A stretch of DNA of 64,000 nucleotides from Nemertoderma westbladi. Its lineage: Eukaryota; Animalia; Xenacoelomorpha. A program made the translations under genes and the position numbers. Below, in pieces: positions 22,975 to 50,251 of this stretch. The first letter of the stretch is position 1. The number at the start of each line of letters is the position of its first letter. A model generated the notes under the pieces. The model saw only the letters and a list, made by a program, of their open reading frames with translations. It was not told the DNA's origin and did not search any database. The stretch lies in NCBI GenBank assembly GCA_032718475.1, contig JAUCBJ010006611.1:1-64000 (forward strand). The letters run 5' to 3'.

Positions 22975-23550
22975 CTGTAGGCCGGACTGTTGTCGGATTG
23001 TTGTTGGGTTTGGAGAGATTGCGGCGTGTGTAGAGTTTGTCCGATAGAGTGCCAGTTAGTAAGTTGGGGCAGCCATAGCTGTAAGGTCAATCCCCTCTTA
23101 AAGAATAAGTCGTACTACCGTGTTAGAACGCATACTAACTAACCATTTTGGAATCTGCACATACTGTAGTTTATTTAGGCTTGACAGTATTCTGCCAACG
23201 TTTTGGCCTGTGTTTGTTTGTGTGGTCTGTTCAGGTACCGTAATAGTTATTACTCAGATATTTTGTAGGCTGGATTGTTGTCTAGCTATTATTAGGTCTG
23301 AAGAGATTGCTGCGTGTGTAGAGTTTGTCTGATAAAGTGCCAGTTAGTAAGTTGGGGCAGCCATAGCTGTAAGGTCAATCCCCTCTTAAAGAATAAGTCG
23401 TACTACCGTGTTAGAACGCATACTAACTAACCATTTCGGAATCTACACGTACGGTAGTTTATTTAGGCTTGGTGGTAGTCTGTCAGCGTTTGGTTTGTAT
23501 TTTGTTTGAGTATTCTGTACGGGTAGCGTAATATTTATTATTCAGAGTTT
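22975..23550. repeat. ~288-bp tandem duplication in the retrotransposon leader
   Basis: AAGTTGGGGCAGCC at 23061 and 23349; near-identical core with diverged edges, so boundaries are approximate. Confidence 0.85.
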
Positions 23551-24838: not shown

Positions 24839-27800
24839 ATGTCTGACACCCAGCAAAACCTGTCAGACAGTCTAATCGATACAACCATCTGTGACACAGA
24901 TAGGAGTGTGGAGCGATTAAGAAAGGAGTTCAGCTCACCTCCTACTGAAAGAAAGGTCATCCCTCCAGTAGTAGTATCCGACCCTAAGCTAATCCAACAC
25001 CGTAGGTCTATCATCGGCACTCTGGCCCAAGTCAAACGGAACCAGGAAGCAGCTGTCCAACAGCAGCAACATCCTAGTCAAGAAACTTGTTCCCAGCGAT
25101 CAGATAGCTCCAGTAGTTCGGATACTGTAGAGCTGACCCCCGAACGCGGATTGCAGATGGCGGCTACAGCCTACTCGGATCCCCTTCTCACCCTTCCTGC
25201 CGCAGTACTAACTACTATATTGATTGCGGTGGAGGAACATCAAGCCGATTGGGCGAGAAGTAAAAGAGTGACCCAAGATAATTATGCGGGATACGCCAGG
25301 GAAGAATTGGTGTCTATTGTCGAGTCACAATGGAACTTTCCCGGACCCGGACTCCCGTTAGATTTGTCCGAAGCTACTTGGGAAGATATACACAGGATGG
25401 GAGTGGCTAAAGATACGATGGATCCAGCTGTTTGGAAGAGGTCGGCAGCAGGATATTGTGCAGGGATTCTTCGGCTCCTTAGAGCAATTGGAAGAACAAT
25501 TGTTTCGACAACCCCAAGGACCTCAAGAGCAGGAGGAGCTGCTTTATCAAGTACGCGAAAGAACCCTACGTATTAGACTAATCCTATCAGCCTTTGAGGA
25601 AACTTCCAAAAGAAGACAGGACACGTCGCTGCAGGTCACTGTCAAGACTTGGTTCCAGCGGGTAGGTCTCAAAGTGCAAGAAACGGCCCAGTGGAAATCC
25701 CAGCTGGCTGAGAGACCAACCTATGAAGAACCAACCGATGCCACCCTTTCTCAAATGGAAAGCGAAGAAACACCAGCAGAGAAGCCGCCCTCGAGAGACG
25801 CCATAGACATCTATCTGTCAGACTATCAACGATTCCTAGGAGACGAAGAGTTGAGGAGACGACTGTCGGGACTTCGCCCTAATAGTGAAGGAACCAAGCT
25901 TGTGTTGGACGCAATCGATGCGGAAATGTTAGCTGCAAACCAAGCTGAATTTGATGAAAAACTCCGCCTCACTAGAGTCCAAGAAGAACAAGTAAAGAAA
26001 AAACGGATAGAGGACCGAAAGGCAGCAGCAGTAACGGCGGCAGAAGCAGAAGCAGCAAAGGCAGCAGCAGAAGCAGCAAAGGCAGCGGCAGCAGCAGAAG
26101 CAGAAAGAAAGGCAGCGGTGGCAGAAGCAGAACTGAGAGCGTCTGAGGAGACTACCCAACTAGAGTTGGAAAATCTGCAAGAGACGCAAGACAACATAAA
26201 TAAACAGTTAACTGCTAGTCACATGCAGATGATGAGAAGATCTACTCCCAAACGCCAGGGATATACATCATCGGAGGAAAGCGAAACCACCGATCCTGAA
26301 GGCGGAGGAAATAGATCTCGTCTAAGCAGGCGTAGAAAAACATCTTACCGTCACAAATTGCCTGATTTGCCCCCAGCTGTTAGAAGACAACTAGCTAGCA
26401 CAGACTTAAGTAGTATAGAACCTACAGACCAAATTATTAAGGTCAAAAAACTCCCTACTATAGTTGATGAGCCTGAAATAATTAGGCCTGTCGTTCCCAA
26501 AGTCACTCCTGTGCTAGAGACCCCTGTACTTCCAGAGCTTAACTCTAAATTCCCTTTACACAGTACTACACTGCCTGTACCCGGTAGAACAGTCCATGAG
26601 AATATCCCTGTCCTGGAAGCTGAGAGAGAAATCAAAGATTTGTCTCCTGTCGTCCCGCGTCAGCCCGCTACAATGTTGGCGACTCCCGCTTCGGCGGTCG
26701 AGTGGGTAGAGGAGGGACGGCGGGGGATGAATCTCCTGCTCGGACAGATGCAGGAGACTGTCCACCAACTTAAGGGAACCGTAAGGGAAGGTAGGGCAGA
26801 ATTGCAAGAAGTGCAGCAAAGTATCGCGCTAGAACGCGACAAATTAGTCAATATACAAAATGGTATACCAATACCCCCTGTAAAATTGTGTCAACCTGTT
26901 AGGTCTGAAGTATTACATGCGCAAGGTGTGGAGCCTACACGCATCTATACTGCTAGTGAAGTAGAAACTCCTATAGCAAACCCTATTAAGGGTGATTATA
27001 GACCTGTTGTTAATGATATTCCCTATAGACCTGATAATGATCCAAGAAATTTATATACCGATAATTCGATATTAAATAACACGATGGCCCAAGAAAGCTT
27101 TACGCGTCAGATGGCTAGAACAGAAGCCCGCCAAGCGGTCAAAGTGGGAGAGATCGTCAAATTCAATGGAGATGAGATGAAATGGTTACCTTTCAACGAA
27201 TATTACAAAGACAGCATACAGAACTCTGTGCTATCTAACGGAGAGAAACTTAGGTTCCTCATCAAGTGCTTGGAAGGACCTCCCAAGTTAATGGCGTTAA
27301 AGTTTATTGGACATCCAGAAGGATTAAGACAAGTTTGGGATACATTAAACATCAGGTATGGTAACAAGGATAACATAGCTAAGTATTTGTATGCAAAATT
27401 AGTAGCCCCCCGAAACTTCCTTAGTAGCGGGATTATAGAGTTTTCCGATGAGATTCAAGAGATCTGTAGACAATTGGACTGGTTAGGTAAGTCTCATGAA
27501 TATCAGAGTTCCATGGTTATTGGAGCAGTAGTCTCTACTTTACCAAAGGGTGGAGTATGTACGCGCTGGGACAAGAAAGTGTTGTATATGAATGAACAGC
27601 AACGACGAAGCCCTACCATGGCTGATCTCATGTCCTTCTTAGATGGTGAAGTAAAACTACAACTCATCAAGCAGTCCAGAGAAAAAACATCGGAAAATAA
27701 GGTAAGTGAGAAACCCGCTTCTAGGAGAAGAGTAACACCGGTGTGTTACACTGACGACGGCGAAAGCCAAGCTTCTCAAGACGAGGACAGCGGGAAAGAC

Positions 27801-30800
27801 ACTGATCGATCTTACTACGTTGACAAAACCTCAAAAGACGTAAGTAAATACAAGGCTCGAAACAACGATAGGAGAGAACAGGTTGCCAAGACCCCTCCTC
27901 AGTCTCCTAACAGAATGCACCGAAGAAAGCCCGAAGAAAGAACGAGAGTGCATCAGGTTACCCAAGGTAAAGTGAGTAACATAAAACCTAACTGTGCGCT
28001 GTGCGACGGGACCCACCGTTTGAGTGCGTGTGCTGAATTTCTAAAGAAATCCCTTGTGGACAGACGTGCAGTCGTGTGGGATAAGCGGTTATGCTATAAT
28101 TGCCTCAGACCAGGACACCAACGGCGAACCTGTTACTCCGACGTAAGGTGTGCAAAGTGTAGCGCGAAACATCACATCTTGTTACACAGTGAGTTCGAAC
28201 GAGACAACCCGAGTCAGGTAAGTGAGCCCGAACTACATGTCCAATTCAGTGATGTAAATGACACTGATCAAGAATCTGAGATGGAAGGATTCTATACTGA
28301 CGAATTTTCCGACGCCAACGAATCCTGTTATCTAATCAATACCGCAGTGTATCGAGCACTTACTTATGAAAAGGACACCAACAATGAGTTTCCCCCAACT
28401 ACGTTTGCCAGACAACCATCTTGGAAAGCTCCAACTTCCAACGTAGGAATCAGAGAATTTCCTGTAGTGCAGGTAAGAGTTCACAGTCCTAACAAAAGTT
28501 ACATAGTGAACGCACTCCTTGACTCCGGCAGCACAGGAACATTCATCGATCAAGAACTAGCCGAAGATATCTTTGCTGGACAACCCAAATTCCGGACTAA
28601 ATTGAATATGTCAGGAATTATGCAGGTTTGGAAATCTACCCTAACGGCAGATTACTATGTAGGTGTGTTGTCCACCCCCCAGGATAAATTAGGAGCACAA
28701 GGTATAAGGTCGGTAAAAATGGTGGCTATAAAGAACTTCGCTTCTACTCAAGCAGACCTTTATAATTGGGACGAGGATGAGAGCATCCAACATCTTAAGA
28801 TACCTCGATTCCAGACAGATTATCCTGGAGTGCAAATACTCATCGGCCAGAACGCGCATGAGGCGCTCGAGACATTGGAGAAACGGCCTGCTCAACCGCA
28901 GCCACTGCAAACCTATGCGGTAAGAACTAGAGTAGGTTGGTACTTTACTGGCCCTTCCCGCAAAACTCTCGAAGAGAGAATGCCACAAGAACGAATATAC
29001 CAAGTAAACGATTGGGAAGTGGAGAGCAGTGAGGTGGACGAACTAACTGAGGTAACACCATACTCCTCAGATAATGACGACATCTACCAACTCTTCGATG
29101 AAGAGAACACAATCGACCTACTTACAGAAAACAAAACTTGGAAAAATCAGGTGAACCTATGTCAATTGATTCGCCCATCGGAACCCATTGACTACAATGA
29201 CGAACTAAATGATGAGATAGAGCGCTGCAACGCTAGAACTCGGGACGAACTCGCCGACGATTCTTTACTCAAGAACTGGTAGAGCCCAATTCATATGATA
29301 AGGCCCTATCGATAGAAGAAGAAAGAGCCAAGCAAATCCAGGAAACAACTACACGTTTTTTAAAGGACCAAGGTAGATATGAAATCGGCCTACCATTTCG
29401 AAAACGAGAACCTAGATTTATAAATAACAGACCCTTGGCAGAGAAAAGAATCGCTCAATTGCATCGATGCCTTACGGCTAATGCTTCAGCTAAAGAAATG
29501 TACCAAACTCAGCTGAAGAAATTTATAACAAAGGGATACGCGGAGCGAGTACCGGAAGGAACACCAGTAACTGAGAGAACGTATTACTTAACACATCATT
29601 ACGTTCCCAAACCCGGTAAACCCCATGAAGTACGAGTCGTATTCGATGGCTCTGCTCTATATATGGGCCAATCCCTCAATTCCGAGTTGTTACCAGGACC
29701 CAACTTACTCCAATCTTTGTTGGGAATACTTTTGAGATTAAGACAATATTCCATCGCGTTTGCCTCCGATATAGAAGGAATGTTCTTACAAGTCAAGGCG
29801 CTGGATAGAGATAGAGACAGTCTGAGATTTCTGTGGTGGCCTGAAGGAGACCTCAACCATAAACCAGTAGAGTACTGGATGACCATCCAGGCTTTTGGGA
29901 TCATATCTAGCCCTTCCAACGCCTGCTCCGTGGTGCGAACCACTGCGAATGACAACCGAGACGCCTTCTCCAAAGAGGTGATAGACAACATCAAACGTAA
30001 TATATACATGGACGACAATTTAAGGTCCCTTCCATCAGTAGAAGAAGCCATAGATGTCGCGAAAGGAACGGTTGAGTGTTTGAAAAGAGGTGGATTTCGA
30101 CTGACGAAATTCACTAGCAACTCCCGTGAGTTTCTGGAAGCGATACCGGTAGAAGACCGAGGAACGAAAGACCTAGACTTAATAAAGGACGATCTTCCAG
30201 AAACCAAGACGCTTGGCTTGAAGTGGGACACTGAAAGAGACATCCTGTTTTTTCAGTTAAAACAGCGAGATAATCCAGTTCGGACCAAACGGATTTGTTT
30301 AAGTATCCTGAGCACTTATTTCGACCCATTGGGATTTATTAGCCCAGTTATATTGATTGCTCGGAGTTTAGTACAACAAATGTGGCTTGAAAACCACTCA
30401 TGGGACGATCCGCTTAAGGGAGAACTGTTAAAGAAATGGATGAGATGGGAAGATTCTCTACCTGCCATCGAGAACTTTATAATTTCCCGTGCATATTTTG
30501 GTCATGTTCTTCCTACGCTTTACTCGTGTTGGAGTATCTAACCAATGAAGTCTGTCAGTTCAGCGTTTTTGTTACTAACAGGGTAGCTATTATTCTTAGT
30601 CGCACAAAGATAGATCAATGGAGACATTGTCCTGGTACGATTAATCCAGCCGATATCGCCTCCAGGGGAGCAACTCCACAGGAACTGATAGATACTCCAG
30701 ATTGGTTGGGTGGACCCGACTTCCTGAGCAAGGAAGAAGATGAATGGCCTCCTCACCTTACTACGGCGGAGATTAGACAAGCCAAGGGAGCGGAGACAAT

Positions 30801-32631
30801 CAAACCTAAAACCCGGGCGAGTAAATCGAAGTTATTTAAACCGACAATCGATCTATCTGTATTACATACTTCCGAAAATGATGCTTCGGATCCACAATCC
30901 CTCGCCACAAATAAGTCTGTTGTGGAAATTAGAGATAGAGATTGGAAATCTGGAATACCAGACGTCTCGCAAGGAATCTCACCCCTGCTGCAGAGAGCAA
31001 TGCATCACTACAGTTCCTGGAATCGGCTCTGTAAAGCCGTCACATATTTAAGGAGATGTTTTCATCATCACTACTCCAGGACGAAGACCATTAGTGATAC
31101 CGCTCCATTGCCATCTGCGCAAGTTCATGTTATTAAAAATTTACCCAAATATAAAACATCCGACAGGTTTCTAAAGGAGAAAATTAGTCACCAGGAGCAT
31201 GAAGAAACCAATAAGCAGATACTGAGACTCCTGCAATGCTATGAGGATTCCGAAAAGTATTTCCTGTTGCTGAGAAATCCGCAGATGCGCTTAAGGGATC
31301 GATTCTCTAGTACAATGATAGATGGGTTAATACGTGTTGGAGGAAGGCTCACCAATGCGCCATTATCCTTTGACACTAAATTCCCCATACTCATTAGAAA
31401 TCTTGAAATCTTGACAAATCAAGATGATTGTAGATGTTCACAGCAAACTTTATCATGCTGGTAGAGAACGAGTTCTTAGCGAAATCCGAACTCGCTATTA
31501 TTTTTATAAACCCCGTAGAGCTCTGAACCAAGTTCTTAGGGACTGCATACCCTGTAGGAAAGCATTACACAGCGAGAGGCAGAATTACCTAGGGAAAGAG
31601 TAAGCTTCTATGAACCACCTTTTACTAATACTGGTGTAGATTTATTTGGCCCTATTGAAGTATATCGTGCTAGGACTATAGTCAAGAGATGGTGTGTCAT
31701 CTTCGTGTGCATGACTTGTAGAGCCATCCATCTCGATATGGTGAATGATCTATCTACCAACAGCTTCGTCTTAAGTTTACGCCGACAGATCGCTCGCTTC
31801 GGGACGAGTAATACCATGAGATCGGATAAGGGAACGAACTTCATTGGTGCCAACAACGAAATACAGGCTTACGTGAAGGACTGGAACCAAAGACAGGTGG
31901 ACGATCAGCTAAGGATAACAGCGTCTAGCTGGACCTTCAACGCCGCCGACGCCCCTTGGTGGGGAGGAAGTTGGGAGAGATTAATTAGAAGTGTCAAGAC
32001 CGCATTTCACTTTATAGTGCCATGCCGCGCGTATCTCACCGACGAACTTTTGCGGACGTTAATGGAGGAAATAGCTGCCTATCTCAACGAGAGACCGCTT
32101 ATGCCTGGAATTTCCGATTCCCTGGAAGCGCTAACACCCGCGCACTTCCTACTGAAGAAACCTGTAGCCATGCTCCCACGATCGGAGATTGCCGACGGAG
32201 ACGAATACTGCTGTCGAACTTGGCAACTTATGCAGTTGCTATCCCGTCGCTTCGCTGACCATTTCGAGAAACATTATCTGCCCACGCTACAACTTCGAAC
32301 TAAGTGGTTTGCGCAGCAAGAAAACGTCAGCGCCGGAGATATGGTGCTTATTGTAGATTCAGACCTCCCACGTAAACGGTGGCAGACAGGTCGTATCATC
32401 GAGACCCACATCTCGGATGATGGTTTAGTACGCTCGGTAGAACTCGTCGTCTTGCGGCGTAACTTCAAGAAGCCAGGTATAATCTTTGAGACGCAACAAC
32501 TCAACCGCCCAGTTGGTCGTTTATGTCTACTGGAAAGAGACAGAGAACTCTCCGGAAACTATGGAAGGCAAGACACTCTTCCCACGACCACCTCCCTAAT
32601 TCCTCAAACATCTAGGGACTCCCCAACGTGA
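24839..32631 (+). pseudogene. BEL/Pao gag-pol polyprotein, disrupted
   Basis: DUF1759-type KFNGDEMKWLPF; three zinc knuckles (CALCDGTHRLSAC, CYNCLRPGHQRRTC, CAKCSAKHHILLH); protease LLDSGS; RT VRVVFD...SDIEGMF...YMDD; NPADIASRG; integrase GVDLFGP, SDKGTNF, WWGGSWERL. Frame breaks near 25440, 29280, 30510 (RNase H DAS segment missing) and 31400-31590. Confidence 0.92.
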
Positions 32632-34250
32632 TACGTCTGGAGTGGGTGTATGACTATATTATTTTATCTATTTTATTATATTTTATATGTGAACATTATT
32701 ATGTACTTTATTATAATCGTTTTTATTTAATTTTATTTAGTAGAAGGTTATTTTAGATTATTTGGTAGATTAGTGCAATAAATTAGTGTTTATTACGTAA
32801 TTACATATATATAATATATATTTAGTGTGACGGCGAGAAAAATTTTTTCTCTTTCCTTACTGTCCGTATCATATTATAAATACGTGACTACAGTAAGATG
32901 AAATGTCCGTACTTATTAAAGTACAATAAAGCCCCTACTATATTTAAGTATTATTGGTAGGCAGAGTATTAGGAATGCAAAGTTCAGATCCTCGTGTCTC
33001 GGCTAAACCAAGCTCTGGGTAGACCTTGGAAACGACTTGCCTCTTCACACTGACATTGCTTCGTGCGATATTGCTCTTCTACCTTATATTAAATAATACA
33101 TATAGTAGCGTGATGTCCCTCTAACAGTAGCGTAAAACGCAAATAAATCTGTTAAACCTTTTGACCATCTGTAATTCTAGTCGATTAAGATATCGCGGCA
33201 CCCACCGATATACTTGAAAGACAAATTCTAGAATCAGTGGTTAACGTCCCCAGACAAGTTCTGGAATAAATCGGTGCCCATCTTAAATATTAATTTAATA
33301 TTTATTAAAATCTGTAAAATTCAGATCCTTTAAATTTCTAGTCAATTAAGATATCGCAGCACTTACCGATACTCTTAAAAGACAATTTTCATAGAATTAA
33401 GGATCCTATGTCCCCAGACCTGCTCTGGAATCAAATTGTGTCAATTTTAACATCAAATAATAAAATTCACGGGAATAAATTTAAATTCATATTTTAAATG
33501 AATTTCATAAATTGTCGTTTTGTGCAATTTATAACATTCCCAAAATTCCATTAATTAATAGATCATGGGAGCGGAGATTCATCCTATTGAGTGTATTAGA
33601 GTGCGAGAATCTCCAACATATAGTCAATAGCCGATAAAATTAATAAAATCATGCATAAAGAGGATATTGACAATTAAAGAATTACTATTAAATAGCATTC
33701 CAGATCTGTATGCATGAGAATTACCCTAATTCTACCGCTAGCATTCCATAATGTCACCATAGCAACACCCACGCTAAAATTAGAAGCAAGTTAAGAGAAT
33801 AATAGAAAGCTTGTCACATTGCATAGCATAGAGAATACATAGCACACTGTTAGTATCCAAGGATACACAGTAACAACGTGACATTCTGGAAGGCACTGAC
33901 TAACGGACAAATGGCCTGTATGTGTACAATTGGTGACAGTTGTGTGGAATTTGTGCGTTTATAGGTGAATGTTACTGCTAAAGTATGTTTACAGTAGCTA
34001 GTCGCAATTGTAAAAGTAGCCCAACTCTCCTATAGAAAGAACCTAAGTGGATCCAAGCCTTTGGGACGGACAGTGGAGTGACTTGTGCCGGTTATCGTTG
34101 TCGTGCTGTTGCTACATGTTGGCGTAAACACCGCGACGATGGTACATCGGCGCTGAGAATCCCACTGTCCGGGGGCAAAGAGAAGTAGGCAGCGACGCCC
34201 GCTCGCCTAAATATAAACTCATTTGATATTAATAAACTCAGATAGCAGAT

Positions 34251-37200
34251 ATGACGGAGTTGATAGAAGATGATCTTGGCATTAGGGAGCGATATACTCT
34301 ACCTTTGCAAGCATTTGTGGATAGCTTAATGCGTGGTGAAGCCGATCCAACCATTATGGAGGACGATGGTCGTTATATCGAACCGCCGATGTCCTAAGAG
34401 CAACTTGCGCGTGAATTGGATTATCGAAAATTCACCACTCGCTATACGAATCGTAATGGTACGTATATGGACTTCTTAACTACCGGCCATCCTATCGATT
34501 TACATGATACGGACGATGTAGATACAGAGAGGGAAATGGTTCTGTTTAAATATCATACCCAGCGGAGTCGTAACGATAAACCGAGAATAGATCACGAAAA
34601 TTCTATTCGTAATAGACTAGAAAGAGAAAACATTGAAGAACCGGATAAATGCATCGACTTCAACGAATACCTAGAATTTTTTAGAGAAACCTATCTCAAC
34701 ATCGCCAGTCAGCAGAACCTAGAGACTCGATATCCTCAAGGTATACATCATGACCCTGTGGTAGAACTCAAACGGCTCTATTTCACTATGATGTATCTTA
34801 CCGCCGATCGTCCACTACCTGTTATCCCGGATAGTTTTGAACAAATGGAAGAATACTGCAAAACTGGAGAACGATCACCCGCGTTTCCTCTGCAGGACGT
34901 ACGTCTTTGGTATTATTGTGACGAATGCCCTAGACCCAACCAACAAACTGAAAGACACAAACATCCGCGGAGACGTTGCGCTAAACACAGCTTTACGCGT
35001 TATACTTACGGGAGTTTCGAGCGAAACCTGTTCGACGTATCACCTACGATCGCTCGTCTTAAACGATCACTGAATAAACCCATGATCAGAGTTCCGGAAT
35101 ACTCGGTCAGGCCTCCTCATTCCCTAGTGAGACCTCAAACTCTTGATCCTAACAGTATCACTGATCCTCCCGAACTATATTCCCTGTTCAAAGACTTAGT
35201 GTTACCCGAACAATTAATCGGTGGTGCTCCGGTAGTGGGTTCGTTAGACATTCGCCCATCCTACTTAGCCGGATTGGGACGCGGGCAGCTAATATCGCCC
35301 TTTGATCCTTACAATCGTCCAGGATTAAACCCGATGCAACCCGCCACGGAAGTCGAGGAGAGCGTTATAAGAAACGCTTTAGACGCTATTCGACAGAAGA
35401 TCGGAAAGGGAACACAAGATTGTTTAGAGAAACGTAAATTACAACAACAAGTTCAATCGGTGAAGGAGTTAGCCTTGCCACAGTTCGATAGAGAAATCCA
35501 AAACCTCGAGGAAGACATCGAGCTTGGACGCACGTATTCTCTACAAGAATTTTTAGATGAACGCTTACAGAGACAAGCGGAAGAAAATCTACTCGAGGAG
35601 AAACACACGAAACTGGAAGAGAGAGAAGAAGCCGCTTTAGCCCAACCTGAAGCTCAAATCCTTATGACGGACCTCTACTCTCGAACCATTCGTCATCCCT
35701 CGATGATTCCACATTTCGGAGACAAACTCTTCGCGACGATACAACCTCAACCGGTTGATATCAGTACAGGATCGCAAAATCTTATCGCTGACGCCCCTAT
35801 GTTACAGCGTCCGCCAATCGAGGCCGCTCGTGTTGACGGTATACTCGTTGAACCTCCGGACAATCGAGCGGATCTTGTCCGTCGTATGGTACACGATGTC
35901 AACATACGCGCTAGACCTTTACAGAACTCGTTTTATGGGATTAAAGACCACCCTTATTACGTTAATCTGACTCAATATTATATGGTAAAACCAGAAGACC
36001 CGACGCATAATTTAAAGTTTCTACCACTAATAAATCCTCTAGACATTGTCGAACTCGAACAATTGCAGAAACATCTGGATCAGTTAGTAAAAGTAAACTC
36101 ATTTAGAAAACCATATAACATTTCTAGAATCGAGAAAGATATAGAACCCCCTTATAATCTCGATGGATTTATTAAAACTCGATTAGTCCATTGGAATCTA
36201 GATGTATTATTTGAAGAAGAGAAAATACAAAGATACGGAAATTTGGAGACGTATACCACTCGGCACATGAAGTATAGTGATCTCCCTGACGCTAACCAAT
36301 GCGCCACCTTGTGGCATCCAGTAGGGATGACCCTAGAGAACGCCACCAAGGAGTGGAATGAAACTCTTAATGTTATTGAGATGTATGGAGTTGTCACCTA
36401 CGATAATGAAGGTAGCGTTCCGGTCGGAGAACTAGGAACTACGCGCATGATCCACATACGCGGATTAGCTGGTTCTACCCATGTGTTTACTCGAGCGTGT
36501 TCCGACGTGATTGATTATTCCTTTGAAACTCTCACTGAAACACAAAAGAATCTCCGACATGGACAATTCGAACTCGCGCAGCGTTACGTCATTGACACCG
36601 AACGCAAACCGGCCATGGGTATCGATGGAGCGATGTTACCCCAGCCCGTACTCGAGATGTTGTTCAACGAAAGAATCCTTAAAATCGGCTCAGCTGTTTA
36701 TGGAGATCTCCAAAACGACTTTCGGAATATGGAGAACATTCCATACCCTTTCGTTGATACTCAGCTGATTGCTCCCTGGGCAGAAGGTCGAGGTTTCTTC
36801 CGCACCATGTATGCTAATACGTCTAGCAACATTACAAAGGTGCAACGAACTTCCATCGGACATCTTGCCTTTCAGGAATACGGATGGAATTTCAAAGTCG
36901 GAAATCCCATTAACTATCAACAAGTATACGGAGACCATTATTCTCGATTATACTTTGATGGACCATTGACCGCACCTGGCGCCGTGTATAGCTTCATGAG
37001 TGTTCCACTCCGTCCCTCCTTAGCTATATACACGATCTTTGAAAACACCGCACTTGCCGGTTGGCTAGCCGATGTGTGCAGTCGTACTATACGCGCCCAT
37101 CCATTAATACTTGGGACCAAACTCGCTAAGCTAGATGAACATAATAAATTCATCCGCTTCGAATGTTTCCGGCGATTTTTAACCCCGTTCCGCAATGTGG

Positions 37201-38504
37201 ATAGCCAATTTAAAGACCGCGCTTTGACCAAGCTCAGCCTAAGAAACTCAGCTGCAGAGAAGTTGGATAGCGCTGGATTCGCCATTTTCCAAGAGATTTG
37301 TATATCGAACTTGCACTCCTCTGTTATACAAAGACCTCGAATCCCCACAGGTTATTCTGTCGTGGAAATTCAGACAATAGGTCCACCTGAAGAGACAGAC
37401 ACGCCCACCTCAGCTATGCACTTAGAAGACGAACCAATATGTCTAGAATCTGAGGAGATTCAGCCTATCGCGCCCCGGAACAGCGACAACGATTACATCA
37501 TAGAATGGTATCAAGGTCCACAGTGTCTCACTGCGTATGATTATCGACATGTCAACTATGTTTCTAGGCAACGTTGTCGGTTATGCGCATCGAGAGACCA
37601 TGATACACCCATGGACACAAACCTCCGCTGTTCCTATTTCCAAGAACAACCGACTATGGAAATTTATTGCGCATATTGCAGACTCAATAACTTGCATATT
37701 TTTGCGGTTTGCCCTCAATTTATGACTCAATGTCACCATTGTCAACAAAAGGGACACGCCAGTTTCGATTGCCCTTTTAATCACGATTTGGAAAGCGTAG
37801 ATGAAATGATCACACTATGTTACATCAGAGCTTGGGAAGCGAACGCTGATTTACATTGTGATTCGCGCCATCGCTATTATCCCGGACGCGCTTACGAAGG
37901 AGTTTATGCATTCCATCCTTATCTATTCGCTTCGGTCGAACAGAAATCACGCATATCGAGTTACGAGCTACTGAAGAGCGTCGGAGAATGTATTTCAACC
38001 AAATTTGTACGCAAATTTCTCAGGAGTGTTAATCCTAGCGACCTTCATTCCTATAACTTAATCAATTACATCCGTCAGGATCCGGACTATGGAGACTTAT
38101 TTGTTAACTCACACCCCGAGTTACAGGAAGTATATCGACGGCCTTACGAATACCGAGCCCGCGAACGCGAGTTGGAAAGAACTATTAAACCCCGGAGGTT
38201 TCTAACTGCCTATGGTCCATCCACGGCCCTCGTTCAGACCACTCGTAAAGGACCCGTAAGAGCGGCTGTCTTAAAACGAACTCTCAAAGCCATTAGACCC
38301 CTCTCCCCCGACGTTGATGTCAATCAACCCGGTACTTCGACTGGCGGATACACCGACCATAATCCTACACCCTCTGATGCAATCATATTGCACCCTTCAC
38401 CCAGGAGTTATAGCCCTCCTTGTAAAGTGGCTCGCCCCAAAGAGAAAAGGACTCTGGCTAGCTTTAAAAAACTGCGTAAATGCTGTCCGCGCAAGAAAGA
38501 CTAA
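34251..38504 (+). CDS. Extra retrotransposon ORF: DEDDy (WRN/EXD/RNase D-like) 3'-5' exonuclease domain plus Cys/His zinc knuckles; one in-frame TAA at 34395-34397
   Basis: 1362 open codons from 34416 with an in-frame ATG at 34251. ExoI VVTYDNEG; LPQPVLEMLFNERILKIGSAVYGDL (ExoII); FVDTQLIA; ExoIII-like PLRPSLAIYTIFE; CHHCQQKGHASFDC knuckle. Confidence 0.7.
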
Positions 38505-38582
38505 CTGTTTAGAGTATTTACATATATTAGAAACTGTGATTTTTGTATATTTATAAACTTGAATCCCATTTTCTGGGAGCGG

Positions 38583-39775
38583 TGTAAAAGCTTTTGCGGA
38601 TATACTCAGTCCCCCTCGCCCGCAAGGTACCGTTATAGGTGTTTTAACGGACATAAAAGTCATTCTTCTATATACGTGCTTTGGCGGACATGGTAAGGCA
38701 AAAAACCCGCAATGCACCAAATACCCTGGCACAGCTTAGCCTTGATGATTCAGATTACGACATCTAACAGCTGGTTGCTGACATGGAAACGGCCATTGGA
38801 CACATGGTTCTTTGTTTAGCTTAACAGCCAATAAGAGCGATTTTTTCTGTCGATGTGGAGATATTTTGGCAGATCATGCTAGGAGTGTTCAGTCTTACTT
38901 TTTTTTCTTGATACTGTTGTGTTGTTTCTATCTAGGCCAGGAACACCGGTTCTAGAGTCAATTCGTTTCAGACTTTAGAAGAAACATTAGTAGGCTTAAG
39001 ATTATAGAGCGTATAACTGTTAACATAACAACTCGGCTCAATCGGCACATACATTGTCATATCATATCTTAACCTACCGTCTTAATGCTTTTACTGTTGT
39101 TATTATTTTGTATCAGTTGGTTGAATATTATTTGGAGAACATCTATAAAGAACCCAAATTTCCCAATTTTCTTGATACACTACAGGTTAGAGAGACAGGT
39201 TACATATAGCGATTGCGACTTATATTATTGTGGTTTGTAGTGAATTTAATGCTATTTGATAAGCACTACATGAGTCAGTTGCTGTTCTCTTAATATATGA
39301 TAAAATTCATTGACGGTCGGCAAATTAGTGAGCAGTATTGTGTGTTACCGGTAGTGTGCATGATTGTGACTGATAACTAAGCATTTCCTAAAGAATGCGC
39401 CTCATACGTGAATCATAAGCCTTACCGACTTACCGTTGTGATTAGTATAAGTAATATCTCTATTTACCTAGATAGAGCGCCACGTCCTAAAGGAACTGTT
39501 AATATTTCCCGAAAGTGAATAATATTGGTCAGAAATTATTTATTAACGATCAATCGAATAATACAGTAAGCTTACACTGCAATAATAATCTAAGCCCTCA
39601 GAATCCAGTCTCCTGGGTATATCCAGCGGGTGAATGGACGCGCACTAGGCTGGCTTCTGCTAATGTTGTGTTTATTGGTATTAAATATTTGTCAATTTCT
39701 AAAGTCTATTTATAAACCAAAAGACATATAAATTTTGGCAGGTTAAACTGCTAAAGGTCTTCAAAAGCGCGTACA
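38583..39775 (+). repeat. 3' LTR (1193 bp)
   Basis: Direct repeat of 21411-22603. Confidence 0.96.
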
Positions 39776-41516
39776 AAAATTGATATTTTTCCGCAAACCC
39801 TTTCAAAAGAAAACGCTGCTAAAAACAACTGAAATTGTGAAAATGTTGCGAAGGAAATATAAAGTATTTTCGTTGGATGACTGCGTGCAAATACTGAAAT
39901 AACTTGCAAATACTGCAAGTACTAAGTACTTTAATAATAAGTACTTTGCAAAAATAGTTTTTATCAACAACATCACGTAACATTACTAAACGGAATATTA
40001 TGCTATGTCTATAAAACCTTTGCTATAAAAAGTGTAATGGTTTTGGTAGAATTTCTCACGCTTTAATTTTTAATATATTAAAGGAACCATTATCACAAAT
40101 CTATTTATTTTATTTATAAAGTTACTATTCTGAAACTTTAACACAATGATCGGCGCAGTGGCGGTACGGCTAATGTCGCGTTACGGAAAGTCACGTTACG
40201 GCTAATTTTCTGAGTAGCCGTAACGCGACTTTGAAAGTCGCGGTACTGCTACTCAAAAAGTCGCGTTACGGTAATCTATTGTCTTGGTTTTACATAGGGA
40301 ATCATTATCAATATTATTCTATGGTGTTTATGTTTAAGTACATGAGATGAGAAAGGTTCGAAAAATGGTATATTAAATGTTATTAAATGTTATTATGTTA
40401 TTAAAATGTTATTGTTATTAATGTTATTAAAATGTGGTAAATGGTATTATTATAATAGGTATATTGGTCGAGTCGAGTGTTGATCAGTATATTGCCGAAA
40501 TATTGCACTTTGAATTTATCATTATAATATTCAAATGAAAAGTATCTAAAACTAACCAGTGATGGCCCGCGTATGGCATTTGGTTCGGTGGTGGAGTGGG
40601 TTGGAATGGTTGGCCACGGAGGGGTGGTCGGGGTTGGGTTGGGAAGAAATAGTTCAGCCGCGAAGGGGTGGTTCACTACACCAACATTCCAGTCGGGATC
40701 ACCACCCCTTCCCAATGCATCTGGGGCGGTATTCATAAATGTGACTAACTAGGAACTTAGTCCTAGTCACATCAAGTTAGTAAGTGCTTGTACTAATTCG
40801 GTATTCAGAGAAGTTGGTGCTACTTATTACTAACGTATTTAGTACTAGTTGTTGTTAAACTCGTATTCATAGAATTTAGTCTTATTATTAGTTAGCATTA
40901 GCTGTAACTTAAATTTCTAGTCACATGAAGATGTGACTAAGTTGGTAAGAAAGCTTACTTATTCTATGTTGGCCTTCATACATACAGTATGGTTATTATG
41001 TTACTGACGACTCCGGCCACATTATACTCTCTCTTGTTTTTCTAGCGTTCTGTGTTCATTGCAAATGTGTTGTTGCAGAGAAACTGTCAAATGTAACGAC
41101 GTAAAGCTTTTTGTTTTTAAACATATATCCGACTTAAATTTCCAAATTTCAGCTTACATTCTTGAATGGTGAGATTGCTCCCGAACGGTCCGCGTCCGTT
41201 GAAAAATGTGTTTCGCTAAAGAATTCTACCATTCGCGAACTTTCGCAAGATAAAAAAGTGGTAGCGTTCCCACTTCATTATTTGTCTCTCTATTACCGAA
41301 TGTAAATAATGGTATTCGATAATGGTAGCCAATTGATTTATCGCCTTACTAAAAATATTAATTTTTCACTAAAATTTTAACAGGAAATCACTAAAATATT
41401 CAGTTTCCACTAAAATCTATTAATTAACATGAAATCTATTAATTATAAATTATTGCTAAAATGTGGGCAAGGGCAGGTTACAGTGCCACGTTATTCTAAC
41501 CTAAATAATGGGCCTA

Positions 41517-41981
41517 AACCATGGAGCCCATTTTGGCACTTTGGATAATTGAAGAATTATCAAAAAAGAAAGACAGGCCTGGCTGTTATCTTTGTTGACT
41601 TCTTCAAGGCCTTTGATTCAGTCTCTCGCTCACGTATGTTCAGCATACTTTTATTATATGGGATTCCTGATGAAATCATTGCAGCAATCAGATCAGTATA
41701 CGATGGTTCGACAACATTTGTGTCTACTGTTGACGGTGACACAGAACCATTTGAAGTGTTATGGGGCGTCCTCCAAGGAGACACACTTGCACCATTCTTG
41801 TTCATTATTGTGGTTGACTATGTTCTACGCATGTCCTTAGATCATTATAATGATGATGGGGTGATGATAACTCCACCTACTGGCTCCAGAAGTCGAGGAA
41901 ATCATGCCAAGTACCTAACCGATCTAGACTTTGCTGATGACTTAGGAGTACTCTCACAATCATTAGAGGGAGCCCAACGGC
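41517..41981 (+). mobile_element. RTE-like LINE, 5'-truncated; part upstream of the Polinton insertion
   Basis: FVDFFKAFDSV, GVLQGDTLAPFLF, DLDFADDL. Confidence 0.9.
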
Positions 41982-42179
41982 AGTAGTAGAAGAAACATAG
42001 ACCTCAGCGTACTCCTCCCTAGCTTGGGCTATGGGCTAGATCTCGGAGGGCTATTAAAAATGCCAAATTTCGGTGCTAAATTGCAGTGTTTAATGACCAT
42101 CTGTCACCACCAGTATTGATTCGCGTCGTTGCCTTGCCTTCAACCAATCGTTGCGTATTCACCTACGCGTAGCCTAACC
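41982..42179 (+). repeat. Polinton left TIR (near-perfect part)
   Basis: Reverse complement of 60771-60968. Confidence 0.95.
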
Positions 42180-42741
42180 ACACGATGCCTGCCTTACTCC
42201 GCCATATGTCACCATCAGCAGTTGCCATCAACCAATCGTCGCGTAGCCTAACCTCGCGATGCCCGCCTTACTCGACTGACTGACTAACCCTAATGTTATT
42301 CACCTTTTCGCCACGTTACCACCGCTGCCACGTTACCACCACCACTGTATACTGTATATGGTGACGACGTGGCCATCTACACGCATCACGCATATATTAT
42401 ATTATATTGATTGCCAACTCCACGACTGCTGTCGCCAAATCAACAAACCAACCAGTATGATACATGAAATTCCGTCACGTTCCAGCTACGCGTATACGAG
42501 CATTAGTGATTATTATTATTATTATTACGCAATAATTTTTGTTTATACAGTAGTTCCCTACCGGCTAATCAACCAATCAATAAACCGAATTTAGGCTATT
42601 TCTCAGTTTAAGACCAGTATTATTTTTGAAAATATCTTATATATATAATCTCTTGCTTTAATCACAATTAATCATTTGTAATGGTTTTAGTTTAAAAGTT
42701 TTTACTTTGTTTGTTTGATTTACAATAAAATAAATTAAATA

Positions 42742-43185
42742 ATGTCTTCTGATTCCGATATGGTTATGCCAATAGTAAGGCATTCATTTTTTGCAGAAGA
42801 TGGTGAAGCCTATATTGTTATTGATTATACAATTTACCGTCGGGGAGATGATACATATAAAATTGAGTTTTCTGAAAAAGCCAGGAAAGTTTTAAGCTCA
42901 ATTGATATTGATGCTTCTGATAATAGTATTCATCTCTTAGATTACAACCTGAAAGTTGAGCATGAGGGAAAATTAATCAACATCTTACTATTATCCATGA
43001 TAGAGGGGTTTATTGTTATTACACAATACAACGAAGCTGGTGAAAAGTTTGAAATACGGCTAAATCGGTATAGCCCCTACGAAATTATGTCTTTCTTTAT
43101 TGTAATGATTTCAAAAGAATCCTTTGTCGAACCTGAAGAATCAACAGATAATGTTGAATATGTTGATAATATCATTGATTCTTGA
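42742..43185 (+). CDS. Polinton accessory ORF, acidic, unknown function (147 aa)
   Basis: Intact ORF in AT-rich DNA, first of the + strand gene block; no motif recognised. Confidence 0.6.
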   Translation: MSSDSDMVMPIVRHSFFAEDGEAYIVIDYTIYRRGDDTYKIEFSEKARKVLSSIDIDASDNSIHLLDYNLKVEHEGKLINILLLSMIEGFIVITQYNEAGEKFEIRLNRYSPYEIMSFFIVMISKESFVEPEESTDNVEYVDNIIDS

Positions 43186-43371
43186 CTTTTCCCTCTATAT
43201 TATAAATATTTTATGATTATTTATAAAATTTTGATGTTTTTAATTATGAAAAAACATCAAATTTTAAATAATCGAAAATTGTAGTAGTAATTGCATATAC
43301 AGTATAACAGATTTGTTTGTTGTTGTTGTGTATTGAGGTAATTATTTTCAATTTACTTTAAAATTTGGAAA

Positions 43372-43824
43372 ATGGATATTTTAAATGAAAAATGTCCAGT
43401 TTGCTATTCTAAGTTATTGCAACAACATCGAGATTATTATAAATGTGAAAATAAACATGCAACTTGCGTACAATGTATTGTACAATATTCCGAAATGAAT
43501 AATTATTGTTCTAAAATTTGTCCTATTTGTCGCGCACCCATATCTAAGTTTAATATAAAGTTGGCAAGTTATCAACCCTATTATTGGAAAGAGCTTCGAA
43601 ATATAACTTATACTTCTGCGGAAAGTAATGATCCAGGAGATTTATTTACAATATTGGAGAATATTTTTTATAGAAATGTAGTACGACGGTGTTGCTACTA
43701 TATTCCTTATTTTTTTAGCAGCGAACATAAAAAAATCATTAGTGCGAAATTCTCGGAAAGTGATTTCCAAACCGCCGATGTTACCTATCATTATTTCGCG
43801 TATAAAGATGCTCACCATGCTTAA
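43372..43824 (+). CDS. RING-finger (C3HC4) protein, putative E3 ligase
   Basis: CPVC...CENKHATCVQC...CPICR. Confidence 0.8.
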   Translation: MDILNEKCPVCYSKLLQQHRDYYKCENKHATCVQCIVQYSEMNNYCSKICPICRAPISKFNIKLASYQPYYWKELRNITYTSAESNDPGDLFTILENIFYRNVVRRCCYYIPYFFSSEHKKIISAKFSESDFQTADVTYHYFAYKDAHHA

Positions 43825-44052
43825 AATTACATTGAAAATGAGTCTATACTATAATTGGAAATAGCACCTTTTGTTGCAGCGAGCGTCACATACTGTAGTT
43901 GTGTCATATGTTAATTAAATATACAGTACTCTAATATTGTAGTTGCATCAATTATTGTTATATACATAGTAATGGTGATGGTTTATTGATATTGATATTG
44001 ATATTATATTATATTATATTGTATTGTTGATATATCTTAATAATAATAATAA

Positions 44053-44727
44053 ATGGCTGACTTTAATTCAGGTCCATATAATTTAAACTTTCAAATGGGA
44101 ACGAGTATGATAATTTCTGGCCCATCTGGTTCTGGAAAATCAACGTTTGTCAGTAATTTAATTAAACACAAGAATGGTTGTTTCAACGAAGCCCCCCTGG
44201 GAGTATTGTATTGTTACGGGAGCAATCCCCCGACTATTCCCGGTATTACTCACCTTTACAAAGGTTTGCCAGAAAATATAGATAGTTTAGTAAATAGTCG
44301 AGATTTATTAATTATAGATGATTTATTAACAGAAACTGAGTCCAGTACAGCTTTAACTGTATTGTTTACTAAGGTAGCTCATCATTCCAATATATTTATT
44401 TGTTTTATAACGCAAAACATGTTTTACGGTGGGAAGCATAACCGCACAAGATCAATTAATAGCCATACCTTAGTATTAATGAAAAATCCGCGAGACAGTC
44501 TATCGGTTTTAAATTTCGCAAAGCAGATGTTACCAGGGCAGACCAAATTTTTAGTAGATTCCTATCAAGATGCGACAATTGAACCATTTTCGCATTTCTT
44601 AATTGATTTACGACAGGAAACACCCGAACATTTAAGATTTAGATCGGATATATTTCGTAATCATAATTGTTACATTAAAAATTACATTGACTATAAACGT
44701 AGCGAAAATAATAATAATGATAAATAA
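44053..44727 (+). CDS. Genome-packaging ATPase (A32/FtsK-like)
   Basis: Walker A GPSGSGKST, Walker B LLIIDD, FTKVAHH, FITQN, KNPRD. Confidence 0.92.
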   Translation: MADFNSGPYNLNFQMGTSMIISGPSGSGKSTFVSNLIKHKNGCFNEAPLGVLYCYGSNPPTIPGITHLYKGLPENIDSLVNSRDLLIIDDLLTETESSTALTVLFTKVAHHSNIFICFITQNMFYGGKHNRTRSINSHTLVLMKNPRDSLSVLNFAKQMLPGQTKFLVDSYQDATIEPFSHFLIDLRQETPEHLRFRSDIFRNHNCYIKNYIDYKRSENNNNDK

Positions 44728-44764
44728 TTAATATTTTGTAACAATTTTCAATAATGTTGCAACA

Positions 44765-45148
44765 ATGAATAGACTTGTGCAGAAATATCGTAACGAACTG
44801 GAATTTCTACGCAGCGCTACCCCTCAACAAAGAACTTATTTTATTAACCATACCGCGAGTAACGAATTAATACGGCTCATTGTAAATACTGCATTAAATG
44901 TTCTAAAAGGTAACGTACAATTAACCCCTCATTCATTTAGAAATATTCGCCGCTATAAGAAGGTATTGAAATCACTCAACCGTAAAACAAAAAATATATC
45001 AAGTTACAGAAAAAAGTTAAGCAATCAATCTGGAGGTATACTACCGTTTCTAATACCCTTACTCGGCATTGGTGCGAAACTTGCTGCGAGTGCTGGTGCC
45101 GCCGCCGCTGGAGCAGCTATTGCGAAAAAAATTAACCGTGGACGGTAA
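44765..45148 (+). CDS. Small basic Polinton virion/core protein
   Basis: LNVLKGNVQLT and QSGGILPFLIPLLG (adenain-type GG cleavage site followed by a hydrophobic tail). Confidence 0.75.
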   Translation: MNRLVQKYRNELEFLRSATPQQRTYFINHTASNELIRLIVNTALNVLKGNVQLTPHSFRNIRRYKKVLKSLNRKTKNISSYRKKLSNQSGGILPFLIPLLGIGAKLAASAGAAAAGAAIAKKINRGR

Positions 45149-45150
45149 TA

Positions 45151-45321
45151 ATGGTTAAAACGGGAGTAACATTTAGAAAATTATATTTAGTATCGAGTAA
45201 ACCGTTAGCTACTGATTTAAAACCACAAGATATACCTAGAGTAAATACTACAAAAAGAAAACCCTTTAAAACATCAACTTCAAAGAAAATAATTAAAAAA
45301 TTTCAGTTGTTCTTACGGTGA
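45151..45321 (+). CDS. Small basic ORF (56 aa), below the ORF-track cutoff
   Basis: MVKTGVTFRKLYLVS...; ATG two bases after the previous stop, filling the gap to the integrase. Confidence 0.4.
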   Translation: MVKTGVTFRKLYLVSSKPLATDLKPQDIPRVNTTKRKPFKTSTSKKIIKKFQLFLR

Positions 45322-45371
45322 GATTTGAATAAGAGATTTGAATATACATATTACTTGCGGTTGTCGAAAAG

Positions 45372-46460
45372 ATGCCACGCAAGATGAAACCGATTTTAAG
45401 CCGAAGCTTAGACAAAAAACTGTTAAGAATTTATTTAGATCCATCATCCCCTGCGGGTTTTGCAAGTATTGCAAAATTAGCAAAAGCTGCAAACATCAAA
45501 CCAGCACAAGCCCAGAAATGGTTGAGCAGGCAAAAGACATACACCCTTCACGCTCCACGTAGACATCATTATCCAACATCTAAAATATTTACGGGAGGCT
45601 TAAAAGATATATATATGATAGATCTGGTGGATATGCAGCAATATAAATCGCAAAATAATAATTATAACTATATATTAACATGTATTGATGCCTTTAGCAG
45701 GCTTGCTTTTGCCTATGGTATGAAAACAAAAAAGGGTATTGAAATTATTAGTATATTGCAAAAAATACTCCAGAAAGGAAAACCAAACAGAATCGCGACT
45801 GATCAAGGGTCTGAGTTTCTAAATAAATCTGTAAGAAAATATTTAGATACGTTAGGTATACAGTATTACGTAATGTATTCTGTGAATAAGGCGGCTATTA
45901 TCGAGAGATTCAATAGAACATTAAAAACAAAGATGTTCAAAATTTTCACGCAACGGGGAAATAATGTTTGGATTAAAATTTTACCAAAGCTCATTTATGC
46001 TTATAATAGGTCATATCATAGGACAATACAAATGACACCTATTGAAGTTAATAAATTTAATGAAACTGAATTAATGAATAGATTATATGGGAAATATAGA
46101 CAGATTAATCACAAGAAAATAAAATTTAAAGTTGGAGATACAGTACGATTATCTATCGCTCGTACTGCTTTTGCTAAAGGCTATCGAGAACAATGGACAC
46201 GTGAATTATTTATTATTCATCGTGTCAGGTTGGATAGAGTACCAGCGGTAATGTTCGATATTAAGGACAGCGCTGGAGCTATAATAAATGGCTCATTTTA
46301 TTCATACGAACTCCAAAAGGTCCACCCGAATAGTAATATTTATCTACCAATTGACAAAAATATTGGCAAACTTAAAGAACGTGTACGCAATGGGAAGAAA
46401 GAATATTTAGTCCGATTCATCGGATCCAAGAAACAGTCGTGGGTACAGCATATTCAATAA
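45372..46460 (+). CDS. Retroviral-like (rve) integrase with C-terminal chromodomain-like tail
   Basis: IDLVDM, CIDAFSR, TDQGSEF, AIIERFNRTLK, KGYREQWTRELF, KEYLVRFIG...SWV. Confidence 0.95.
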   Translation: MPRKMKPILSRSLDKKLLRIYLDPSSPAGFASIAKLAKAANIKPAQAQKWLSRQKTYTLHAPRRHHYPTSKIFTGGLKDIYMIDLVDMQQYKSQNNNYNYILTCIDAFSRLAFAYGMKTKKGIEIISILQKILQKGKPNRIATDQGSEFLNKSVRKYLDTLGIQYYVMYSVNKAAIIERFNRTLKTKMFKIFTQRGNNVWIKILPKLIYAYNRSYHRTIQMTPIEVNKFNETELMNRLYGKYRQINHKKIKFKVGDTVRLSIARTAFAKGYREQWTRELFIIHRVRLDRVPAVMFDIKDSAGAIINGSFYSYELQKVHPNSNIYLPIDKNIGKLKERVRNGKKEYLVRFIGSKKQSWVQHIQ

Positions 46461-46709
46461 GCTTAGGTTTATACTGTATATTAATTCATTTTGGTTGCAT
46501 ATGTCCGTAATTAATCAATATTAACTCGAATGATATTACTATATCTATAGTTCATCCGCTTTAAATAAAGCCAGTAAAATATTGATCCCTCACATATATT
46601 GTAGAAGCGACAATGAACGTGGTCACAGATGTCTATAATTTAACATTATACTGTACTGTATGTACAATGGAGTCAAGTAGAGAGAGAGAGAGCTTAAATA
46701 ATAATAATA

Positions 46710-47582
46710 ATGGCCACAGATACATATATCACTCTACTTTCAGATAGCTCATTAAACACTTACCCCAATAATAATCCTAGTGAGTTTACTGTTGATTTAG
46801 CCGAAGAATTATATATTGGTCCAAACGCTAAAATTGGTTTGGCTGAGCTTCAATACCAAGCAACATACAGTAATATTACACTGCAAACTCAAATCTCGCT
46901 GTCAATCGGGGTAGATGCAAAAGATGCCAAATTATATAGTTTATTTCCTGGTATGCATAGCTCTATTCAAGTGATTATTGATGATATAAATAAACTGTTT
47001 AATTCTGAAGCGAAATATAGAGATTTCGAATTCATTTTTAATACAAATAATTCTAGAATTAAATTTAAATTTCCTAAAAAGTTGAAAAAAATACAATTAA
47101 GTCTACGTGGTGATTTAATACAAATTCTAGGCTTAAAACCGTTATTGGATCAGAATCATCCAGGTATTCCAAATTGGGATATATACAGTACCACTACAGT
47201 AGATGAATTAAGCAATATAGAACAACCGATATTAATTTTAAATTATAGCGGACCAAAAATTTCGGAAATTGGCATTTTAGATTTTCCAGCTCCCACGAAT
47301 ATAACACGTAATAAAGATACAATTTTTATATATACTGATATTATTAAGAGCTCATTTGTTGGTGACGCTTTAGCTCCGCTCTTAAGAACCTGCCCTTTAA
47401 AGCAATTAAATCGAAAATATATTAATCACGAATACGAGAGTATTTGCTATTACCCATTGTTGAATAAAAAACTAAAAACAATCTTAATTACTTTACGTGA
47501 CGGACAAGGCGAATTAATTAATTTTAGCGGAGGTCGCACTGTTATAACACTTAAGTTAATACGGGGTGGCGGTGATGGATGA
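46710..47582 (+). CDS. Minor capsid protein (penton) 1
   Basis: YITLLSDSS..YPNNNPSEFTVDL, IGLAEL, FIYTDII..SFVGD..APLLR, I.L.D..G..I.F. Confidence 0.85.
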   Translation: MATDTYITLLSDSSLNTYPNNNPSEFTVDLAEELYIGPNAKIGLAELQYQATYSNITLQTQISLSIGVDAKDAKLYSLFPGMHSSIQVIIDDINKLFNSEAKYRDFEFIFNTNNSRIKFKFPKKLKKIQLSLRGDLIQILGLKPLLDQNHPGIPNWDIYSTTTVDELSNIEQPILILNYSGPKISEIGILDFPAPTNITRNKDTIFIYTDIIKSSFVGDALAPLLRTCPLKQLNRKYINHEYESICYYPLLNKKLKTILITLRDGQGELINFSGGRTVITLKLIRGGGDG

Positions 47583-48419: not shown

Positions 48420-48420
48420 A

Positions 48421-48987: not shown

Positions 48988-48989
48988 TA

Positions 48990-50249: not shown

Positions 50250-50251
50250 GT

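Follow-up and report, generated by a model that had tools for sequence, protein, structure and literature searches.

The window analysed here, 64,000 nucleotides of Nemertoderma westbladi DNA (assembly GCA_032718475.1, contig JAUCBJ010006611.1, positions 1 to 64,000, forward strand), holds one BEL/Pao retrotransposon of 18,365 bp (21411-39775), recognised by its pair of long terminal repeats (LTRs), its target-site duplication and its Pfam domains. Between pol and the 3' LTR this element carries a third open reading frame (ORF3), and a comparison of sister copies shows that purifying selection acts on this accessory gene, which the family shares and many diverged copies contain. The predicted protein combines a DEDDy-like exonuclease block with three zinc knuckles. 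We propose, with a probability of roughly 0.4, that it is an exonuclease acting in trans to trim RNA 3' ends, which would weaken the host's small-RNA silencing or its RNA surveillance of the element.

We then asked whether the reading frame is maintained in the family. Sister copies were read from the contigs of sequencing runs; six of the seven listed runs contain the stretch, four studies are represented, and four runs were compared. None of the runs containing the stretch is on record as RNA, the best-matching one may be the window's own source, and sequencing depth was not taken as copy number. The earlier note on this DNA had left it open that the frame might be missing from other copies or evolve neutrally, and both doubts can largely be set aside. 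All 30 bins into which 32500-38580 was divided are covered by contigs in each of the four runs, with identities between 80 and more than 99%. The stop codon that interrupts ORF3 (34395-34397) is nearly private to this copy; another letter stands there in 98.8, 97.7, 100 and 100% of the depth across the four runs. Among the best-supported 40 of 1623 differing places, 36 fall in ORF3, and with the stop site excluded 24 of the 35 classified differences are synonymous, against an expected fraction of 0.22-0.30 (P <= 4e-6). The bias is strongest in the exonuclease block (36370-37070), where 35 of the best 40 of 82 frequent differences are synonymous (P <= 5e-14), with a rough ratio of nonsynonymous to synonymous rates (dN/dS) of 0.04-0.06. 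Both sets consist of the best-supported differences, they have three places in common, and each change was classed singly. Of 12 listed insertions and deletions, from a total of 105, 10 lie in the spacer between pol and ORF3 and the other two in a linker of ORF3, and the exonuclease block has no indel at a share of at least 35%.

These data bear directly on the idea that ORF3 is a passenger, either a nested element or a captured host gene in neutral decay. Its composition is indeed unlike that of gag-pol: the observed/expected CpG ratio is 1.24 in ORF3 (34398-38501), with no CpG depletion, and 0.86 in gag-pol, a contrast that suggests a separate origin. However, the frame lies inside one LTR pair and is flanked by no inner repeat pair, so that we rejected a nested element, and its presence across diverged copies together with the strong synonymous bias already largely refutes a passenger, which we now hold to be extremely improbable. 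The earlier note had also contrasted the single stop of ORF3 with several lesions in gag-pol. The counts themselves stand (one stop in 4.25 kb, five frame changes in about 7.8 kb of gag-pol), but the difference is not significant (binomial P about 0.3), and lesion counts were rejected as evidence of selection, the contrast carrying no weight.

ORF3 occupies the sense strand between the integrase and the 3' LTR (frame 34251-38504), and the motifs first reported for it are found in their places. CDEC (34917-34928) belongs to the N-terminal Cys/His motif; the exonuclease motifs are YDNEG (36399-36413), ILKIGSAVYGDL (36675-36710), VDTQ (36753-36764) and YTIFE (37029-37043); and the three C-terminal Cys/His clusters read CX2CX4HX9C (37575), CX2CX5HX4C (37668) and CX2CX4HX4C (37731), the last one perfect. 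The coiled-coil-like stretch that was also described corresponds to a peak at about 35390-35630 in a heptad score, which is crude and no proper coiled-coil test. The parts of the gene are as follows.

34251-38504, plus strand: ORF3 of 1417 codons, interrupted by a single stop (34395-34397)
34917-34990, plus strand: N-terminal Cys/His motif, a possible zinc site, with no Pfam or PDB family match
35388-35630, plus strand: coiled-coil-like stretch, by the crude heptad score
36370-37070, plus strand: DEDDy-like exonuclease domain, by sequence comparison, with an insert of about 30 residues after ExoI
37575-37772, plus strand: three CCHC-type zinc knuckles, by their motifs (zf-CCHC E 0.066; best PDB match Air2, E 0.05)
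38420-38501, plus strand: basic C-terminal tail, by sequence a possible nuclear localisation signal

The exonuclease region (36300-37100) runs without a break in this copy. As the earlier note had it, there is no membrane anchor or signal-like stretch: the highest hydropathy over 19 residues is 1.21, and therefore the frame is not env-like and an env identity was rejected. A Pfam scan of ORF3 returned only a weak zinc knuckle and no exonuclease. We also considered that the knuckles had been copied from the element's own gag, and rejected this (comparison with the gag knuckles, E 0.053).

The assignment of the block leans first on a distant homologue. A search of 1.84 billion representative proteins, queried with 1200 of the 1368 residues that follow the stop, returned a single protein, P0001 (E 1.8e-5), an unnamed sequence of 648 amino acids that is encoded on one 9.4-kb assembly contig and forms a single-member cluster. 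Over the exonuclease block 46 of 150 positions are identical, and in both proteins DxE, KVGS..AD, DTQ and W.KPL....Y...E follow one another in this order, ahead of three knuckles separated by short linkers. The knuckle cluster is matched as well by only 1 of 2000 shuffles; P0001 also ends in a basic tail and, unlike ORF3, is without the N-terminal part of roughly 650 amino acids. Word-seeded protein searches gave nothing beyond P0001, and scans of viral contigs, bacterial and archaeal genomes, plasmids and phages gave no relatives. The motif order is also that of the WRN exonuclease, EXD2, RNase D, Nibbler and MUT-7, namely ExoI DxE, ExoII K.G....D, a DTQ-like strand, a helix and an ExoIII of the form PL....Y. 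Unlike these proteins, ORF3 has a Glu in ExoIII, two inserts, scores below cut-off and fused knuckles, and it is borne by a retroelement.

Profile comparisons converge on the same superfamily, each of them weakly. RNase D tops the NCBIfam matches for the domain (E 0.0023 and 0.017; 17 bits against a cut-off of 299), P0001 matches PF01612 at E 0.2 (11.9 bits against 23.6), and a PHROG 'exonuclease' is matched over the ExoI region at E 0.25. A two-sequence profile built from ORF3 and P0001 has RNase D as one of its two PDB matches (E 2.2) and matches 8 of 264 pattern-matched metagenome stretches, which are likely fungal; all three that were tested pass the PF01612 cut-off, and one of the stretches, L004, matches the WRN and EXD2 structures. 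When aligned with WRN-like loci by hhalign, ExoI to ExoII fall in one local alignment (probability 93.9%) and ExoIII is in register globally (probability 95.8%). YDNE aligns with IDVE of P0001 and FDAE of L004, which gives the D-x-E of ExoI, and ExoII has its Asp at 36705. From such comparisons we consider a DnaQ-like fold very probable for the block. That it is instead a conserved RNA-binding protein of another fold, with motifs matched by chance, would agree with the absence of any match at a curated cut-off and with ExoI and ExoIII being not significant alone; however, four libraries each give an exonuclease of this superfamily among one to three matches, and a distant homologue has the motifs in colinear arrangement, so we regard another fold as improbable. 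Structure prediction did not contribute: the AlphaFold models are too weak for the fold to be read (predicted local distance difference test, pLDDT, 29.9 for the single sequence and 35.8 for a ten-sequence alignment in which ExoI is misaligned), and Foldseek and VIA-align (best Z 4.6) on these low-pLDDT models listed no DnaQ-family structure, which is uninformative either way. EccB1, the only PDB sequence match for the domain or the whole frame (E 0.4-0.7), was rejected as chance.

Several observations weigh against our proposal and must be set beside this evidence. ExoIII reads Y-x3-E in both ORF3 and P0001, where the canonical motif is Y-x3-D; the Asp at this place is described as strictly conserved in the DEDDy family in the accessible part of one source (PMC11706625). 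No match of ORF3 reaches a curated family cut-off, and PF01612 does not match it at all. The family matches fall almost entirely on the ExoII block, and the ExoII match of the WRN-like loci is circular because these loci were chosen by ExoII patterns. Taken alone, the ExoI block scores at chance (1097 of 2000 shuffles as good, and 77-82 of 300 in a second test), and so does the ExoIII block (51-88 of 300). Default alignments misplaced ExoI, losing the YDNE register, and inserts follow ExoI and precede ExoIII. In three of the four runs a deletion joint connects 34620 to 37425 (34621-37424 skipped), which marks an internally deleted subfamily that has lost the exonuclease region and kept the knuckles. 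Finally, the ORF3s of bdelloid rotifers, to which we return below, are reported in the accessible part of PMC5408684 to show no clear link with copy number and, within genomes, not to depart from neutrality, whereas purifying selection is clear in the ORF3 described here. Of the earlier reading as a DEDDy exonuclease, therefore, the layout is backed by P0001 and by the converging weak matches, and full membership is not: as the Y-x3-D of ExoIII is absent, the domain is filed as DEDDy-like and not as a canonical DEDDy member.

Whether the block can still cut depends on the predicted catalytic positions, Asp 36402 and Glu 36408 in ExoI, Asp 36705 in ExoII, and Tyr 37029 and Glu 37041 in ExoIII. 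The reading of the ExoIII Asp as a Glu was correct, and as P0001 has the same Glu the change is old and does not reflect decay. Because D, E, D, Y and E all persist in P0001 at an identity of only about 30%, catalytic activity has probably been retained. Moreover, the best 40 of the 82 frequent differences in the block touch none of the five catalytic codons; since these positions persist and are absent from the listed frequent differences, ORF3 may well carry out metal-dependent 3'-5' trimming, and its product is likely a soluble exonuclease of the RNase D-WRN type of DEDDy enzymes. The same domain could alternatively be a weak or dead derivative, a decoy or adaptor that binds RNA or factors of silencing or surveillance. 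EXD1 and Maelstrom, inactive DEDD derivatives according to the accessible part of PMC5408684, would be its counterparts. The ExoIII Glu in both proteins, the two inserts, the roughly 80% of ORF3 that lies outside the nuclease block, and the weak best PDB match of the knuckles to the TRAMP adaptor Air2 (E 0.05 for ORF3, E 0.064 for P0001) would suit such a role. We nevertheless find it unlikely: acidic residues still occupy all four metal-ligand positions and the Tyr persists at that low identity, when dead nucleases usually lose several, and the catalytic codons are spared among the listed differences of the sister copies.

We therefore return to a trimming exonuclease and to what it might act on. 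ORF3 might have an RNA of its own, spliced or transcribed from an internal promoter, a possibility raised by the 1.6-kb spacer that precedes the frame. A TATAAA stands 39 nt before the ATG, an AATAAA at 34231 and three AG dinucleotides immediately 5' of the ATG (34212-34250); the TATAAA and the AG dinucleotides are a candidate internal promoter or splice acceptor. The basic tails of ORF3 and P0001 may allow nuclear import, the knuckles are likely to hold single-stranded RNA, and the predicted exonuclease would then trim RNA 3' ends in trans, to the detriment of the host's silencing by small RNAs or of its RNA surveillance directed at the element. An RNA substrate is suggested by the knuckles together with the RNase D match, and counter-silencing by analogy with Nibbler and MUT-7, DEDDy proteins that trim small RNAs (PMC11347159, in its accessible part). 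If the enzyme is active, we would give even odds to an RNA substrate and a counter-silencing target. A wider proposal, that ORF3 represents a distinct, long-conserved, retroelement-borne and active family of 'DEDE' exonuclease-knuckle proteins, serving either to trim Piwi-interacting RNAs (piRNAs) and small interfering RNAs or for proofreading or primer maturation of an 18-kb retro-genome, is put forward only tentatively.

An enzyme of this kind could also serve the element itself, and here the architecture of the element matters. Its features are the following.

21406-21410, no strand: left target-site duplication AAAAT, present once at the empty site in the adjacent 473-bp units
21411-22603, plus strand: 5' LTR of 1193 bp, TG...CA, 8 mismatches in 1192 positions against the 3' LTR
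22604-24839, plus strand: 5' leader of 2.2 kb with internal duplications, by sequence
22605-22614, plus strand: candidate primer-binding position, with no TGG start and a 10-nt complement to LTR 21841-21850
24840-32631, plus strand: BEL/Pao-type gag-pol (gag bearing three knuckles, protease (PR), reverse transcriptase (RT), RNase H (RH), integrase (IN)), by Pfam, with five frame changes
32632-34250, plus strand: non-coding spacer of 1.6 kb, by sequence, with TATAAA at 34212-34217 and AG dinucleotides before the ORF3 ATG
38583-39775, plus strand: 3' LTR, by self-comparison
39776-39780, no strand: right target-site duplication AAAAT, by sequence

Self-comparison gave two LTRs of 1193 bp each, with TG...CA ends, and the five letters AAAAT occur once in the neighbouring 473-bp repeat units, which preserve the empty insertion site; the element is young. 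Three BEL/Pao Pfam domains exceed their curated cut-offs in the expected order, DUF1759 (E 1.7e-12), Peptidase_A17 (E 1.8e-16) and DUF5641 (E 1.2e-20), together with an RVT_1 match at E 0.011. Thus the paired TG...CA LTRs, the target-site duplication and the domain order gag-PR-RT-RH-IN all place the element in BEL/Pao; a scan of viral contigs found no relatives. Diverged internal duplications occur in the 5' leader (22666-24732; aligned over 52, 294 and 137 nt) and in the spacer between pol and ORF3 (33145-33450; aligned over 145 nt). The element was called giant in the earlier note, which is fair relative to curated elements, the profile of the international virus-taxonomy committee (ICTV) giving 4.2-10 kb for Belpaoviridae genomes (PMC8742986). 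It is no record, however: an automated BEL/Pao survey lists, in its accessible part, median lengths of 6.2-9.4 kb and maxima of up to 22.8 kb (PMC3118150). A transfer RNA (tRNA) primer-binding site after the 5' LTR is typical according to the ICTV profile (PMC8742986), and no TGG start was seen there, so that a tRNA-type site is not evident. Positions 22605-22614 are complementary over 10 nt to LTR 21841-21850, a length that 3 of 300 mononucleotide shuffles reach in a post hoc test, and the end of the 5' LTR forms a short hairpin with the adjoining primer-position stretch; a search of the LTR for a split, intron-bounded primer complement gave none. The 10-nt complement and the lack of a TGG-type site hint at self-priming, a weak post hoc signal.

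Some members of the exonuclease family, the WRN-like and Pol I-type enzymes, act on DNA ends. An active exonuclease might accordingly be packaged through its knuckles and trim the 3' ends of genomic RNA, primer or cDNA, for example in maturing a self-made primer or in proofreading the reverse transcription of so unusually long a template. Such action on DNA ends would fit, as would knuckles that resemble nucleocapsid-type RNA binders (P0001 against HIV NC, E 1e-4), an element about twice the median BEL/Pao length, and a primer position with no TGG-type site and a 10-nt complement in the LTR. For the rotifer proteins, Rodriguez et al. leaned towards the processing of 3' ends or an auxiliary part in replication, in the accessible part of their paper (PMC5408684). 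Against this, most BEL/Pao elements replicate without such a frame, the knuckles do not derive from the element's own gag (E 0.053), and the hint of self-priming is both weak and post hoc. The sister copies, 80-99% alike, also carry many substitutions and so do not suggest high fidelity, though fidelity is not measured by such divergence. A role in the element's own replication is thus a serious but doubtful alternative to small-RNA trimming in trans.

The kind of gene described here has precedents, and the novelty implied in the earlier note is accordingly lower. DEDDy ORF3s were published in 2017 for LTR retrotransposons, the bdelloid elements Juno and Vesta, and for Athena/Terminon elements, with DEDD changed to DEED; the same functional options are discussed there (Rodriguez et al. 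2017, PMC5408684, accessible part), and the accessible parts of two reviews repeat the description (PMC6431247, PMC6338049). The ORF3 of Juno and Vesta, like that described here, is a separate frame after pol in the env position, RNase D-like and free of membrane segments, and one catalytic Asp is replaced by Glu, although at another motif position (DEED against D-E-D-E). The likeness is one of published description. The carrier here is a BEL/Pao element, unlike Juno/Vesta and Athena/Terminon. The ORF3 of this window has 1417 codons, a coiled-coil-like stretch and three C-terminal knuckles, whereas the bdelloid DEDDy frames are said in the available text to be without coiled coils; neither 'zinc' nor 'CCHC' appears as a word in that text of PMC5408684, which notes a Cys-His-Cys motif in two families. 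Within BEL/Pao, elements with an env-like third frame (roo, chuvirus-like glycoproteins) have the same LTR-gag-pol-ORF3-LTR layout, pol domain order and Pfam domains. Their third frames are described as glycoproteins (PMC13524379, accessible part); here the third frame predicts a soluble nuclease-like protein, in an element of 18.4 kb against the 4.2-10 kb of the ICTV profile (PMC8742986). The word 'exonuclease' is absent from the main text of PMC3118150, PMC13524379 and PMC5348765, and no exonuclease frame in BEL/Pao was found in the searchable literature, a scope outside which lie Repbase, subscription journals and most supplements. What is new here is thus the BEL/Pao carrier, the D-E-D-E motif, the fusion to knuckles and the size of 1417 codons, the kind itself being known from rotifers.

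The ways in which animal retrotransposons counteract piRNA silencing have yet to be worked out, and if ORF3 does disarm host silencing by trimming small RNAs, an animal LTR element would encode an enzymatic anti-piRNA factor. Neither activity nor selection was ever demonstrated for the DEDDy ORF3s of 2017, and selection on the nuclease block is clear here. With a young, abundant family in a second LTR superfamily and an unbroken, expressible domain, the question becomes testable. The finding also suggests repeated capture of exonucleases of this kind by unrelated retroelements.

Elsewhere in the window, tandem arrays with units of 52, 90 and 473 bp occupy 4290-8160, 18453-20470 and 20240-21410, and the element is inserted in a 473-bp unit. 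Downstream, a region of about 19 kb (41982-61147) is bounded by inverted repeats (41982-42182 and 60768-60968, 98.5% identical) and contains a P-loop ATPase (Pox_A32, E 0.0012), a RING-like frame and an Adeno_PX-like frame, all below cut-off; this region looks Polinton/Maverick-like. The fragments at 41549-41986 and 12942-13036, two copies 93% alike over 95 nt, resemble a non-LTR reverse transcriptase. A tRNA-Met gene lies at 63309-63380.

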